Shown: positions 49,694 through 63,925, counted from the stretch's first letter. The stretch: 64,000 nt of DNA from Anaerohalosphaeraceae bacterium (GCA_050309605.1 JBNRMN010000067.1:148136-212135), one strand, 5' to 3'. Notes: generated by a model not told the origin, from the sequence alone. A program made the numbers and translations.

Positions 49694-49963
49694 ATGGGAC
49701 GTTCGCAAAAAAAAGGACCATTTGTCAACGAGAAGCTGTTCGTGAAGGTACAGAAACAGATTGATTCAGGTTCTCGCGAACCGATTAAAACCTGGGCGCG
49801 GGCCTGTACGATTATCCCGGAATTTGTCGGGTTTACCTTCATGGTGCACAACGGCAAAATGTTCCATAAGGTTTTTGTAACGGAAGATATGGTCGGGCAC
49901 AAGCTGGGCGAATTTTCACTGACGCGGAACTTCCGAGGTCATTCGGGGGGTAAAAAAGGTTAA
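49694..49963 (+). CDS. rpsS: 30S ribosomal protein S19
   Basis: [18 protein letters not shown]. Confidence 0.99.
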
Positions 49964-50019
49964 GCGGCCGAGTGTGAACGCCGGCCAAGAGGCCGATAAA
50001 CACGAATAAGGTTGACATT

Positions 50020-50568
50020 ATGTTGAGCGGAAAAAAGTTAAATCAGATATGTGAACAGCGAAACATCGGCGACAGGGAGCTGGCCGAGCATCTGGCGCAC
50101 GGCGGCATGAGCGCCGACGATGCGTCCGGCGCGATAGGGAACTGGCGTCGCGGGTTGTATAAGCCCATTCCGACCCGTCGTGATGTCGAACGGCTGGCCG
50201 AGGCGCTGGGCGTTGAGGCCACGGAGATTTCGGAATGGCGTGCCAGTTATCGATATGCTCCGATGTCAGCGCGAAAGGCGCGGCTCGTGACGGCGATGAT
50301 TGCCGGTCGGGATGTGCAGGATGCGCTGGATGTGCTGACGTTTACGCCCAAGCGTGCCGCCGAGGCGATTAAAAAGGTGCTCAGCAGCGCGATCGCCAAC
50401 GCCGAAGAGCAGGAGGCGGATAAGGACGAATTGTTCGTGGCCGAGGCGCGTGTGGATCAGGCCGGTCGTCGGCTGGGAACCAAGGCATGGCGCGCCAAAG
50501 ACCGCGGTCGGGCGCATCCGATCCGCAAGGAAGCCAGTCATATTCATATAACGGTAGCCGAGGTATAA
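50020..50568 (+). CDS. rplV: 50S ribosomal protein L22 with N-terminal XRE-like HTH extension
   Basis: L22 core (SARKARLV, SAIANAE, RGRAHPIRKEASHIHI) preceded in frame by about 70 extra residues. Confidence 0.93.
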   Translation: MLSGKKLNQICEQRNIGDRELAEHLAHGGMSADDASGAIGNWRRGLYKPIPTRRDVERLAEALGVEATEISEWRASYRYAPMSARKARLVTAMIAGRDVQDALDVLTFTPKRAAEAIKKVLSSAIANAEEQEADKDELFVAEARVDQAGRRLGTKAWRAKDRGRAHPIRKEASHIHITVAEV

Positions 50569-50585: not shown

Positions 50586-51383
50586 ATGGGTCAGAAGACA
50601 TCACCAATCGGGTTTCGAACCGGAATTACGCTGGGCTGGCAAAGCACATGGTTTGCGCCGAAGGCCAACTACGGCGATTTTTTGGTGGAAGACTATAAGA
50701 TTCGTCAGTATGTGGACAAGAAATTCAACCAGCAGCCTCCGTTTGCGGCGGTCTCGCGTGTTGAGATTGCCCGAACACGCAACGAGGTGAAGGTGACGCT
50801 TTATACGGCGCGGCCGGGTTTGGTGATCGGCCCGCGCGGGGCGGAGGTGGATAAACTTCGCGAAGAACTTGAAGACCTGATTGACCGGAAGATCAACGTC
50901 AATGTGATTGAGATCAAAGAGCCGGCCCTGGACGCCCGGCTGGTCGGCGAGAACATCGCCGCTCAACTGAAAAAGCGGGCGTCGTACCGCCGTGTGACCA
51001 AGATGGCCTGCGAGCAGGCGATGAACGCCGGCGCCAAAGGGGTTAAGATTATGGTCAGCGGCCGATTGGGCGGGGCGGAGATCGCCCGCAGTGAAGTCCA
51101 GAAGCTGGGCAGTATTCCGCTTCAGACGCTGGAAGCCAATGTGGATTATGCGATCATCGGGGCGCGGACGACGTACGGGACGATCGGCATTAAAGTATGG
51201 ATTTATAAAGGCAAATTCGGCGACGAGATTGTGCCGGTGCAGCGAACCGAACGGCGCGGCCGCTCGGAGCGCGGCGAAGGCAAGTCCCGCCGCAGTCGTT
51301 CGGGTCGTTCGCGGTCGGAGCGTCGTCCCAAGGTCCCTGAAGCCGAAACGACCCAGGTGCAGGAATCTACCGAGAACAGTTAA
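50586..51383 (+). CDS. rpsC: 30S ribosomal protein S3
   Basis: MGQKTSPIGFR, SGRLGGAEIARSE, TTYGTIGIKVWI; Arg-rich tail. Confidence 0.99.
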   Translation: MGQKTSPIGFRTGITLGWQSTWFAPKANYGDFLVEDYKIRQYVDKKFNQQPPFAAVSRVEIARTRNEVKVTLYTARPGLVIGPRGAEVDKLREELEDLIDRKINVNVIEIKEPALDARLVGENIAAQLKKRASYRRVTKMACEQAMNAGAKGVKIMVSGRLGGAEIARSEVQKLGSIPLQTLEANVDYAIIGARTTYGTIGIKVWIYKGKFGDEIVPVQRTERRGRSERGEGKSRRSRSGRSRSERRPKVPEAETTQVQESTENS

Positions 51384-55391: not shown

Positions 55392-55913
55392 TTGGCCGAG
55401 GAAGCAATCAGAACAGCAGACATGCAGAGCGAGCAGCCGCTGGAAGATACGGTGGTCAAGGTCTTCCGTAATGCCAAAGTGGTCAAAGGCGGACGGCGTT
55501 TCAGCTTTTCCGCTCTGGTGGTGGTCGGCGACCGCAACGGTACGATTGGCTACGGCTACGGCAAAGCCAATGAAGTGCCGCCGGCGGTCGAGAAAGCGAT
55601 CAAGGACGCCAAGAAGAATCTGCACCGCGTACCGGTGGTGGACGACACGCTGCCGCATCCGGTGATCGGCAAATGCCGGGCGACCCGCATTACCCTGCTT
55701 CCGGCCAGTCCCGGTACGGGTGTGATCGCCGGTTCCAGCGCGCGGGCGGTTCTGGAATATGCCGGTTTCCGCAATGTGCTGACCAAGATCAACGGCAGTC
55801 GGTCGGCCAAAAATGTCGTCAAGGCGGTCATGAACGGATTGCTTCAACTGCGCGATAAAGAAACCGTCGAATCTCAGCGCGGAGTTGAGATCGAAGTTGA
55901 AAAAAGGTGGTGA
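55392..55913 (+). CDS. rpsE: 30S ribosomal protein S5
   Basis: KVVKGGRRFSFSALVVVGD, PGTGVIAG; TTG start after GGAG. Confidence 0.98.
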   Translation: MAEEAIRTADMQSEQPLEDTVVKVFRNAKVVKGGRRFSFSALVVVGDRNGTIGYGYGKANEVPPAVEKAIKDAKKNLHRVPVVDDTLPHPVIGKCRATRITLLPASPGTGVIAGSSARAVLEYAGFRNVLTKINGSRSAKNVVKAVMNGLLQLRDKETVESQRGVEIEVEKRW

Positions 55914-55920
55914 TAACGTC

Positions 55921-56370
55921 ATGCTGAGCAATGAAATAACTGCAATCGTCGGCGCGTATTCCAAGCGCAAACGAATCGGACGCGGCAAAGGCAGCGGACA
56001 CGGCAAGACCTGCGGACGGGGCCATAAAGGCGCCGGCAGCCGTTCGGGCAACAGTCTGCGTCTGCTGGATGAAGGCGGCCAGATGCCGCTGTTTCGCCGT
56101 CTGCCCAAACGCGGCTTTAACAACGCCAACTTTGCGACCAAATATGAGATAGTCAATGTCGCGCAACTGGAACGCGTCTTCAAGGACGGCCAGGCGGTCG
56201 GGATTGATGACTTGATCGGCGTCGGTCTGGTCGGAAGCCGCCGCAGCAAGGTCAAGATTCTCGGCGACGGGGAGCTGACCAAAAAGCTGACGGTCTCGGC
56301 GCACAAGTTCAGCAAAAGCGCCGAGCAGAAAATAGCCGGATGCGGCGGGTCGGTCAAAGTCGTTGCCTGA
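55921..56370 (+). CDS. rplO: 50S ribosomal protein L15
   Basis: RIGRGKGSGHGKT, EGGQMPLFRRLPKRGF. Confidence 0.98.
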   Translation: MLSNEITAIVGAYSKRKRIGRGKGSGHGKTCGRGHKGAGSRSGNSLRLLDEGGQMPLFRRLPKRGFNNANFATKYEIVNVAQLERVFKDGQAVGIDDLIGVGLVGSRRSKVKILGDGELTKKLTVSAHKFSKSAEQKIAGCGGSVKVVA

Positions 56371-62319: not shown

Positions 62320-62754
62320 ATGCGTCATCGTGTAGCAGGACGACAATTAAACAGAACCAGTGAGCACCGTCTGGCCATGCGGCGTAATTTGACGGCGTCG
62401 CTGTTTGAACATGAGACCATTTCGACGACACTCGAAAAGGCTAAAGATGTTCGCGGTTTTGCCGAAAAGCTGATTACGCTGGCCAAGAAAGGCACGCTTC
62501 CGGCGCGCCGTCGGGCCATTGCGCTGCTGAACAATCGCGCCATTTATGAAGAAGATGAAAAAGGTCAGCTTGTCAAGAAGGGCACCGTGGTTGGCAAGCT
62601 GTTCAGCGATATTGCGCCGCGCTATTTGGATCGTCCCGGCGGTTATACCCGCATTATCAAATTGCCCAAGCGGCGGCTGGGCGATGCTGGGCAGCTCGTA
62701 CTGCTTCAACTGGTTGGCGCCGGCCAGGAAAAAGTCGGCGAAAAGAAGAAGTAA
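62320..62754 (+). CDS. rplQ: 50S ribosomal protein L17
   Basis: [22 protein letters not shown]. Confidence 0.98.
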
Positions 62755-62814
62755 TCATTTGTTTCGAAGCGACTTTCGGTTTTACCGACGGCACACAAAG
62801 GGAGGTGTTAAGCG

Positions 62815-63231
62815 ATGTCGGAATGTGTTTTTTGTGAAATTGTCGCCGGACGTATCCCCTGTACGCAGGTCTATGAGAACGACAAGGTGCTGGCGTTTCT
62901 GGATGTCGGTCCGATCAGCGACGGCCATACGCTGGTCATTCCCAAGGCGCATTACGACCGCCTGCATCACTGTCCCACGGAGGTGCTGGCTGAAGTCGCA
63001 AAGGTCGTCGGGCTTTTGGCCCATCCCGTCGCCGAGGCCGTCGGAGCCGACGGGTATAATGTACTGAGCAATAATGCTCCCGCCGCCGGGCAGGTGGTCG
63101 AGCACCTGCATGTGCACATTATTCCGCGAAAATCGGGGGACGGCGTTTTTAATCGATGGCCGGCCTTCAAATATCCGTCCGGAAAAGCCGAGTCCATCGC
63201 AGAAAAAATCAAACAAAAACTTGCAAAATAA
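62815..63231 (+). CDS. HIT family protein
   Basis: CVFC, GHTLVIPKAH, QVVEHLHVHIIPR. Confidence 0.95.
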   Translation: MSECVFCEIVAGRIPCTQVYENDKVLAFLDVGPISDGHTLVIPKAHYDRLHHCPTEVLAEVAKVVGLLAHPVAEAVGADGYNVLSNNAPAAGQVVEHLHVHIIPRKSGDGVFNRWPAFKYPSGKAESIAEKIKQKLAK

Positions 63232-63546: not shown

Positions 63547-63830
63547 TGTATTGCCTCAATTGGAAATGGACAAATCCTTTTAAAGTGTTATTCTTTTGTG
63601 GACATTTTTGAAAGGGATTTGGCATGAGCAAGCAACGCAGGCGGTTTGAACCGGCAGAAAAGGTAAAAATCATTCGGGAACATCTTGTTGATAAGCGGCC
63701 GCTGTCGGAGGTGTGTGACCAGTACGGCATCGCCCCGACCCAGTTTTACCAGTGGCAAAAGCAGTTTTTTGAGCAGGGCGCGGCGATCTTTGAACCCCGG
63801 AAAAGGACTTGCGATCACAAAACCGGGGTG
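63547..63830 (+). mobile_element. Truncated IS3-family element (left end and partial orfA)
   Basis: TG-starting end TGTATTGCCTCAATTGGAAATGGACA; ORF from 63624 RRRFEPAEKVKII...SEVCDQYGIAPTQFYQWQKQF; no orfB; right boundary approximate. Confidence 0.8.
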
Positions 63831-63925
63831 ATAGGTGGTGGCTCTTTTTAATGGGGCGGATTTTTAATTTGTGGAGGCCGTTGCGGCCGTGTTGCAGTTA
63901 AGCAATTCTTATATGATTGAATAAG

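Follow-up and report, generated by a model that had tools for sequence, protein, structure and literature searches.

What is a repressor-type fold doing at the front of a ribosomal protein? The question is raised by the rplV gene in a 64,000-nucleotide (nt) stretch of DNA from an Anaerohalosphaeraceae bacterium (GCA_050309605.1 JBNRMN010000067.1:148136-212135), here called the window, whose coordinates are used throughout. An earlier note on this DNA had remarked that the gene in the rplV slot encodes 182 amino acids (aa) against the usual ~110-120, that its first ~70 residues look like an XRE helix-turn-helix (HTH) with an insertion in the turn, and that neither a stop nor a well-placed internal start precedes the L22 core. 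The descriptive part of the answer, that the fusion is real and that the added domain is XRE by fold and descent, is near certain; for its function, a fixed place on the surface of the large ribosomal subunit is favoured.

The rplV gene and its uL22 core

Positions 50020..50568 hold the sole rplV of the genome, a uL22 core behind a 74-residue N-terminal domain (N-domain). The window genome (G000, 99.7% complete) has a single uL22 gene, with one match to PF00237 and one match to the protein itself. The length reported in the earlier note is correct: the open reading frame (ORF) lies between S19 and S3, and the core is made up of residues 75-182. Residues 75-179 match Ribosomal_L22 (PF00237; E 4e-30, 104.4 bits versus a cut-off of 28, model positions 1-103 of 104), and the core scores 95.6 bits against TIGR01044 (rplV_bact, cut-off 73.65). 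Bacterial uL22 chains in the PDB (~110 aa) cover residues ~73-181 only (phmmer, E 1e-19), and the full-length model matches solved uL22 chains in Foldseek with TM (template modelling) scores of 0.81-0.90, normalised to the targets. The uL22 alpha/beta fold with its long beta-hairpin is present in the model (strands 138-154 and 167-181). The operon order around rplV, L4-L23-L2-S19-L22-S3-L16-L29-S17-L14-L24, is the usual one, and S19 adjoins rplV in 48/48 comparison loci (tblastn, with the window S19 as query). The features of the locus are as follows.

50020..50568, + strand: rplV, the fused HTH-uL22 gene, 182 codons plus stop, ATG start (ORF list and sequence)
50020..50241, + strand: predicted N-terminal Cro/C1 (XRE)-fold domain, residues 1-74 (AlphaFold2, structural neighbours, profiles, alignments, and the ratio of nonsynonymous to synonymous substitution rates, dN/dS)
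50242..50565, + strand: uL22 core, residues 75-182, with the tunnel beta-hairpin (Pfam, NCBIfam and PDB matches)
50008..50011, + strand: AAGG motif, Shine-Dalgarno-like, 8 nt before the ATG (consensus resemblance only)
49694..49963, + strand: rpsS (uS19), the upstream neighbour, with a 56-nt spacer to rplV (ORF list)
50586..51383, + strand: rpsC (uS3), the downstream neighbour, 17 nt after rplV (ORF list, sequence and tblastn)

Translation start and selection

The start of the long form is conserved. ML[S/N/C] stands at the protein start, with Met1 kept, in 12/12 aligned proteins of the window's order (clade A below). The reading frame opens one codon upstream of Met1 in three relatives (L009, L018, L019) and two codons upstream in two others (L012, L017), so that the conserved 74 residues are not readable from farther upstream. 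AAGGTTGA (AAGGTT) is found upstream of the same start in 8/14 clade-A loci listed, among the upstream strings of 18 relatives. The 12 clade-A N-domains align without gaps over 74 residues, with 11 invariant columns. In six genomes of the genus, codons 2-74 have a dN/dS of 0.065-0.189 in 15/15 pairs (Nei-Gojobori), compared with 0.048-0.117 for the uL22 core in the same genomes by the same method. Start conservation and dN/dS together show, at the level of sequence comparison, that the N-domain is coding, translated from Met1, and under purifying selection that is about twice as relaxed as in the core. A start at the L22 core itself, which the earlier note had argued against, is contradicted by the same three observations: the conserved Met1, the frame opening 1-2 codons upstream, and the low dN/dS.

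The extension might still be an artefact of annotation, with the real start internal and the upstream frame open by chance, and some public records of close homologues are in fact shorter (P0060 and P0229, 153 aa; P0253, 160 aa; P0264, 122 aa), with the HTH partly or wholly hidden. This is hardly credible, as 74 upstream codons are kept as protein in ~89 genomes, with substitutions biased to synonymous ones. Moreover, several relatives have other residues in place of the internal methionines, R or F for Met30 and S or T for Met82, and starting at Met82 would cost the uL22 fold its first beta-strand. Thus, the remark that no well-placed internal start precedes the core holds, and we read the short records as probable start-calling errors in which internal codons were annotated.

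Fold and descent of the N-terminal domain

Modelled alone with AlphaFold2, the domain has a predicted local distance difference test score (pLDDT) of 94.1 and a predicted TM score (pTM) of 0.80 (16-sequence alignment), with helices at 4-14, 18-27, 32-43 and 53-63. The full-length model (22 sequences; pLDDT 87.8, pTM 0.74) adds a short helix at 67-70. In this model the domain passes directly into the uL22 strand 73-80, and there is no linker of low confidence; ~2 residues separate the HTH domain from the first uL22 beta-strand, and the residue at the junction is aromatic (W73, F/Y in the second clade of carriers described below).

That the extension folds as an HTH, the outcome the earlier note had expected of a structure check, is supported by the confidence of the isolated model and by its structural neighbours. 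The top Foldseek matches listed from the PDB are all XRE-fold (P22 c2, 434 repressor, DdrO, C.AhdI, lambda cI and SinR), and also include C.Csp231I (TM 0.74, root-mean-square deviation (rmsd) 1.8 Å) and the CapH N-terminal domain. In VIA-align, C.Csp231I is matched with Z 9.9 and an rmsd of 2.2 Å over 68/74 residues, and XRE-fold domains make up all 50 matches listed. The N-domain homodimer prediction (score 0.01, mark 0.42) gives no call either way.

Sequence profiles point to the same superfamily at a greater distance. HTH_19 matches residues 4-70 below threshold (21.8 bits with the whole protein, 25.0 with the isolated domain, cut-off 30.2). The match lays 67 residues over 58 profile positions, and therefore the short insertion in the turn, as seen in the earlier note, is real. 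When 16 members were compared with Pfam, 13 touched HTH_31, eight HTH_19 and seven HTH_3, all below the cut-offs and listed only at E 1e-5 or weaker. Every Pfam HTH cut-off is missed, and the domain is therefore not filed under any single Pfam family. In a library of 1.84 billion representatives, a profile of the domain has 108 hits. Those at E<=1e-10, 44 in number, start within the first 27 profile positions, at the protein start, and have the uL22 core where they are long enough; the sole exception is P0122, a tandem-HTH protein with its score summed over nine repeats. Weaker hits (E 1e-8 to 1e-3) are ordinary XRE proteins, many of them tandem-HTH, and 8/10 of those scanned pass the HTH_3 or HTH_31 cut-offs. 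Among PDB sequences the profile matches TniQ in its N-terminal region (E 0.0026), the N-terminal domain of CapH (E 0.009) and a Cro (E 0.017), and no ribosomal chain. On predicted fold and remote homology, then, the domain is a member of the Cro/C1 (XRE) fold superfamily, outside any single Pfam HTH family.

Residues L21, A22, G29, A35, A38, N41, W42, P49 and A60 are invariant or near-invariant in both clades of carriers. We read these as the positions that would define the XRE fold, and not as outward-facing positions of the recognition helix. Helix-3 positions 33-37 and 40 vary, and the outer face of this helix is Ala-rich and often acidic at its start. The net charge of the N-domain ranges from -1 to +9 in 22 sequences, and is -1 in the window protein.

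Distribution of the fusion

With the single protein as query, an end-to-end match is found in 38/41 genomes around the window (eight families, one order). The three exceptions are G038, aligned from residue 38; G014, represented by a 33-residue contig-end fragment; and G004 (77% complete), with no match. G038 is full-length once a profile is used. A full-length profile of 22 sequences, run against 401 genomes of the class, gives 396 matches. Ninety of these span profile positions 1/2 to 180-182 with E <= 9e-60, a contig-end copy in G604 reaching 165, and in the remaining class genomes the best E is no stronger than 3e-51, which leaves a clean score gap to the full-length set. The weaker matches are core-only (profile positions 31-73 to 181) among the matches listed, which are the first 150; genomes beyond these were classed as plain by E-value. 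One plain genome among the 401, G581, is flagged as unpublished, and none of the conclusions depends on it.

Carriers fall in two clades. In the window's order, Sedimentisphaerales (f1, f2, f5, f7 and f8), the full-length form is present in 66/67 genomes and no truncated form is seen, in keeping with the presence in close relatives that the earlier note had predicted; the only unmatched genome, G497, yielded no uL22 match whatever. The second clade (clade B) comprises the Phycisphaerae families f10 (19/19) and f119 (4/4), or 23/23 together. In this survey, none of the 17 other families of the class yielded the domain. Twenty loci were read directly: 5/5 f10 genes carry the domain, and 15 genes of f9, f11, f104, f107, f109, f110 and f113 begin MA[WY].. 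at the core itself. A spread of the fusion across Planctomycetota, as entertained in the earlier note, is not what was found. It is confined to these two Phycisphaerae clades: among 301 genomes of the phylum there are 16 full-length matches, nine from the order and seven from f10, and 0/272 genomes outside the class have a full-length HTH-uL22.

Protein length is near-constant: clade-A proteins have 182 aa, and those read from clade B have 180-181 aa. The species-named carrier records are Anaerohalosphaera lusitana and Limihaloglobus sulfuriphilus, both Sedimentisphaerales and both cultured, while the records of second-clade carriers are metagenome-assembled genomes (MAGs) labelled 'Phycisphaerales bacterium'.

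Two further uL22 genes of the class were noted. G604, of family f104, has a plain uL22 and also a second, HTH-bearing one, situated right where a short contig ends (G604:C360:2-496). As the assembly has 620 contigs and a plain uL22 is present in the same genome, the HTH-bearing copy is probably contamination. The uL22 of f107 (L038-L043) has no N-domain, but carries a Lys/Arg/Ala-rich C-terminal tail of ~20-30 residues.

History of the fusion

To place the two clades, a tree was built from seven neighbouring proteins (L2, S19, uL22 core, S3, L16, S17 and L14) of 49 taxa, over 1018 columns; one row lacks three proteins owing to contig ends. Trees were made with FastTree, and the constraint was evaluated with IQ-TREE -fast and the approximately unbiased (AU) test. 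The window's order is one clade (support 1.0), and f10 + f119 sit in a separate clade with f118, f9 and f11 (support 1.0). Forcing all carriers to be monophyletic costs 367 log-likelihood units (AU p 7e-69), and the two carrier clades are thus not sisters.

The domains themselves are each other's closest relatives. With an N-domain profile made from the order only, the uL22 N-domain is the top match in 5/5 second-clade genomes (E 3e-15 to 9e-9), and the next-best locus in those genomes is at 0.02-0.5 or absent. Since the carriers are not sisters and their domains are mutually closest, one origin followed by at least four losses, or by one ancient transfer, is implied. Identities of N-domain and core fall in step: they are 55/76% inside the family, 42/64% from one family of the order to another and 26/48% across the two clades. 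As judged from these sequences, the N-domain is of single origin and has long been passed on with the core. In principle it is easily lost, by a shift of the start to the junction.

Transfer of the whole gene between the clades was considered and rejected: a core-only tree (108 residues, poorly resolved) does not unite them, and the N-domains are no more alike than the core predicts.

A proposed fixed module on the large subunit

With only one copy of rplV in the genome, all 50S subunits should bear the domain. In the reading favoured here, to which a probability of roughly 0.6 is given, it is a permanent surface domain of the large subunit that touches rRNA, a partner protein or both, close to the N-terminus of uL22. 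The HTH domain would sit on the 50S as a permanent module beside that terminus and would work by touching rRNA, a nearby protein or ribosome-associated factor, or both; it might, for example, steady a 23S rRNA junction there, or provide a solvent-side docking surface close to the tunnel exit. It would have no role as a classical dimeric operator-binding repressor. An ancient DNA-binding fold would have been recruited as a part of the ribosome, in the way that the Cro/C1 HTH of EDF1/Mbf1 is placed on 18S rRNA. The short linker, the aromatic at the junction, the near-fixed length and the single confident full-length model suggest a fixed, not a loosely tethered, module.

Excerpts of published structural work provide precedents. 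In the Cutibacterium acnes ribosome, an N-terminal extension of uL22 is described as anchoring 23S H2, H24, H46 and the tip of H19 (PMC10085706, in part). In the chloroplast ribosome, a uL22c-specific domain is described as helping to hold on the rRNA a uL13c helix that replaces H98 (PMC5694952, in part). The cro/C1-type HTH of EDF1/Mbf1 is, according to the excerpts, wedged between h33 and h16 of 18S rRNA (PMC7486125; bioRxiv 10.1101/2020.10.31.363135).

Several points weigh against a fixed surface module. The XRE fold is overwhelmingly DNA-binding, and the N-domain is only mildly basic, unlike typical rRNA-threading tails. The Foldseek E-values of so small a domain are weak (0.1-0.4, with 0/324 matches reaching 0.001), and the VIA-align Z of 9.9 is middling, as values below ~13 are not decisive for helical domains according to the tool's note. 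When full 23S genes of five carriers (L103-L107) and five non-carriers (L109-L113) were compared in E. coli rrlB numbering, 0/15 indel blocks of >=4 columns separated the two groups; the non-separating blocks include H98 (Ec 2791-2807) and the variable element at Ec 272-295. There is thus no sign of a compensated rRNA change. Additionally, 17 families of the class and the other classes sampled are without the domain, which makes it dispensable for ribosome function as such. Both its place on the ribosome and its contacts are what we infer.

The 23S genes had features of their own. Both 23S copies of G031 (L104 and L108) are ~3170 nt long, and L104 has a 289-nt insertion at ~E. coli 1872, where the nine other aligned Phycisphaerae 23S genes have 0-6 nt. 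The insertion may be an intervening sequence or an intron. The 23S of the window genome, which lies outside the window (G000:C1:63548-66367), matches model positions 15-2472 only, its 3' domain falling beyond the contig end.

Alternative functions

The earlier note had offered both a DNA-binding autoregulator and an extra ribosome-surface domain that binds rRNA or factors, and the second fits the data better. As a moonlighting regulator, free, unassembled HTH-uL22 would bind an operator and repress ribosomal-protein or other operons, linking transcription to the pool of free uL22. Free ribosomal proteins of E. coli (L4, S8, L1 and others) do autoregulate, via RNA; the fold and remote homology of the domain are those of Cro/C1 repressors, and it is mildly basic in most members. 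However, one copy per ribosome would be a huge excess for an operator-binding factor, and the outer face of helix 3 is small or acidic and varies within the order (DDASG, ADASG, DEATT, RASSL, AKEAV) around the conserved A35 and A38. Nor does a perfect palindrome (arms >=7, spacer <=8) occur upstream of the window rpsJ, in a crude scan of one promoter; the same crude scan of this promoter region in the window and four other clade-A loci gave neither a shared palindrome nor a conserved block, with one genome-specific palindrome each in 2/5 regions. A regulator of this kind is unsupported by these data and appears unlikely. An RNA role off the mature ribosome, in which the domain binds the mRNA leader of the operon or aids early 23S folding in 50S assembly, is judged improbable to the same degree. 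In its favour, uL22 joins early in assembly and makes contact with several 23S domains. Published excerpts add that a Cro/C1 HTH is able to bind structured rRNA (PMC7486125) and that an N-terminal uL22 extension clamps four 23S helices in C. acnes (PMC10085706). Against this, no 23S indel tracks the domain in the ten genes compared, and the overlap with the favoured surface module is large, as an assembly clamp would stay on the ribosome too.

At the other extreme, the domain may have no function at all. An XRE fragment fused once to rplV could have been kept without selection for its removal and lost repeatedly as inessential, as the patchy distribution (at least four losses if the fusion is ancestral) and the roughly twofold faster evolution of the N-domain would allow. 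The dN/dS of 0.07-0.19 is, however, far under 1 in 15/15 pairs, the clade-A alignment is gap-free over its 74 residues with 11 invariant columns, and the order keeps the full-length form in all but one genome with no truncation, so that a neutral passenger seems slightly less probable than the two roles above. It is also possible, although doubtful, that the HTH still recognises nucleic acids specifically and lends uL22 a second job, either as an assembly-coupled regulator acting on DNA or leader RNA, or as a built-in ribosomal element of the MBF1/EDF1 type. In the latter form, to be held just as tentatively, an HTH on the ribosome would sense or bridge neighbouring ribosomes, the nucleoid or an exit-site factor. 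The fixed surface module on the large subunit remains the favoured account.

Other ribosomal genes and features of the window

In the tip of the uL22 beta-hairpin, which extends into the exit tunnel (window 50458-50490, residues ~147-157), there are three extra residues in 12/12 aligned proteins of the order. The tip reads ..DQAGRRLGTKAW.. in the window's order versus ..GGPx---IKRF.. in the second carrier clade, and this addition could alter the constriction of the tunnel. Downstream, the rpsC product uS3 (50586-51383) has an Arg/Ser/Glu-rich C-terminal tail of ~45 residues (..RTERRGRSERGEGKSRRSRSGRSRSERRPKVPEAETTQVQESTENS) past the usual core.

The absence of a neighbouring ribosomal protein was considered as a correlate of the domain. 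Genes for bL17 (window 62320..62754) and bL32 are present in the genome. Searches for uL30 (PF00327) were negative in the window genome and in all 151 class genomes, and positive in 13/14 control genomes; because it is missing from all 151, uL30 does not track the domain. At window 55392-56370 (rpsE, rplO) there is no space for uL30 between S5 and L15, the longest L15 frame overlapping the S5 end. An ORF at 62546..63067, considered as a gene after rpoA, was rejected as spurious, since it overlaps rplQ and lacks any Pfam match. Close to the window's end, after the rpoA-rplQ-HIT gene stretch, a short ORF (63624-63851) encodes a transposase-type HTH (HTH_Tnp_1, E 6e-11).

Implications

Whole globular domains are rarely gained by bacterial core ribosomal proteins, and no solved ribosome was found to have a Cro/C1 fold joined to uL22, a protein lining the exit tunnel. 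Two Phycisphaerae lineages are thereby marked by a structurally distinct large subunit, possibly a new case of a DNA-binding fold turned to RNA or ribosome binding. If the HTH did serve a second job, uL22 would be the first universal ribosomal protein shown to have a working domain of the transcription-factor type. Near relatives with and without the domain form a natural experiment, and cultured carrier species exist. The short public records carry a warning for annotation, as internal start calls conceal the domain.

Comparison with known systems

The full-text literature searched, which does not take in subscription journals, yielded no earlier account of an HTH-uL22 fusion. Another uL22 fusion is catalogued in NCBIfam as NF008917 (PRK12279), 'L22/unknown domain fusion'. 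In that family (311 positions) the L22 part is at 9-109 and the extra part is C-terminal, the opposite of the window protein. Membership of the window protein was rejected, as it scores 48.6 bits versus a cut-off of 526, with the L22 part alone matching.

The five-helix fold of the N-domain is common to the Cro/C1 (XRE) HTH domains (HTH_3, HTH_19 and HTH_31; C.Csp231I, P22 c2, 434 repressor and SinR). Their hallmarks are seen in ..LA.. of helix 2, ..A..NW..G...P after helix 3 and ..LA..L of helix 4, as well as in the reciprocal profile hits. Unlike the usual XRE domains, the N-domain is ~4-5 residues longer over helix 2-turn-helix 3, falls below every Pfam cut-off, has an Ala-rich helix 3 with acidic or variable outer positions, and is fused to a ribosomal protein. 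The same fold is also the fused N-terminal module of the non-transcription proteins HppE, HEPD and MPnS, which are among the top structural neighbours; there it is joined to cupin-type enzymes, with no link to the ribosome. The XRE domains of these enzymes are not known to bind DNA.

MBF1/EDF1 of archaea and eukaryotes is a precedent for the way of working only: a cro/C1-type HTH placed on the ribosome via rRNA helices, as described in excerpts of PMC7486125, where it is also reported absent from bacteria. It is a free small-subunit factor with an extra N-terminal MBF1/zinc-ribbon part and a C-terminal HTH, whereas the HTH of the window protein is N-terminal and covalently part of a large-subunit protein. 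Neither the Pfam MBF1 family nor MBF1/EDF1 chains are among the matches listed from Pfam, the PDB profile search, Foldseek or VIA-align.

The nearest parallels in architecture are the uL22 extensions of Cutibacterium acnes, Mycobacterium and chloroplast uL22c, which likewise consist of the universal core and residues added in one lineage. Parts of the published descriptions place the C. acnes N-terminal extension on 23S H2, H19, H24 and H46 (PMC10085706) and have the uL22c-specific domain working with uL13c and bL21c on rRNA (PMC5694952). In Foldseek, no solved uL22 reaches past the core of the model (~109-127 aligned columns, TM ~0.5 normalised to the query). From our reading of the chain alignments, the known N-terminal extensions are shorter, at ~20-30 residues in bacteria and ~60 in uL22c. 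Unlike any of these, the addition in the window protein can be recognised as a fold in its own right, one that belongs to a transcription-factor family.

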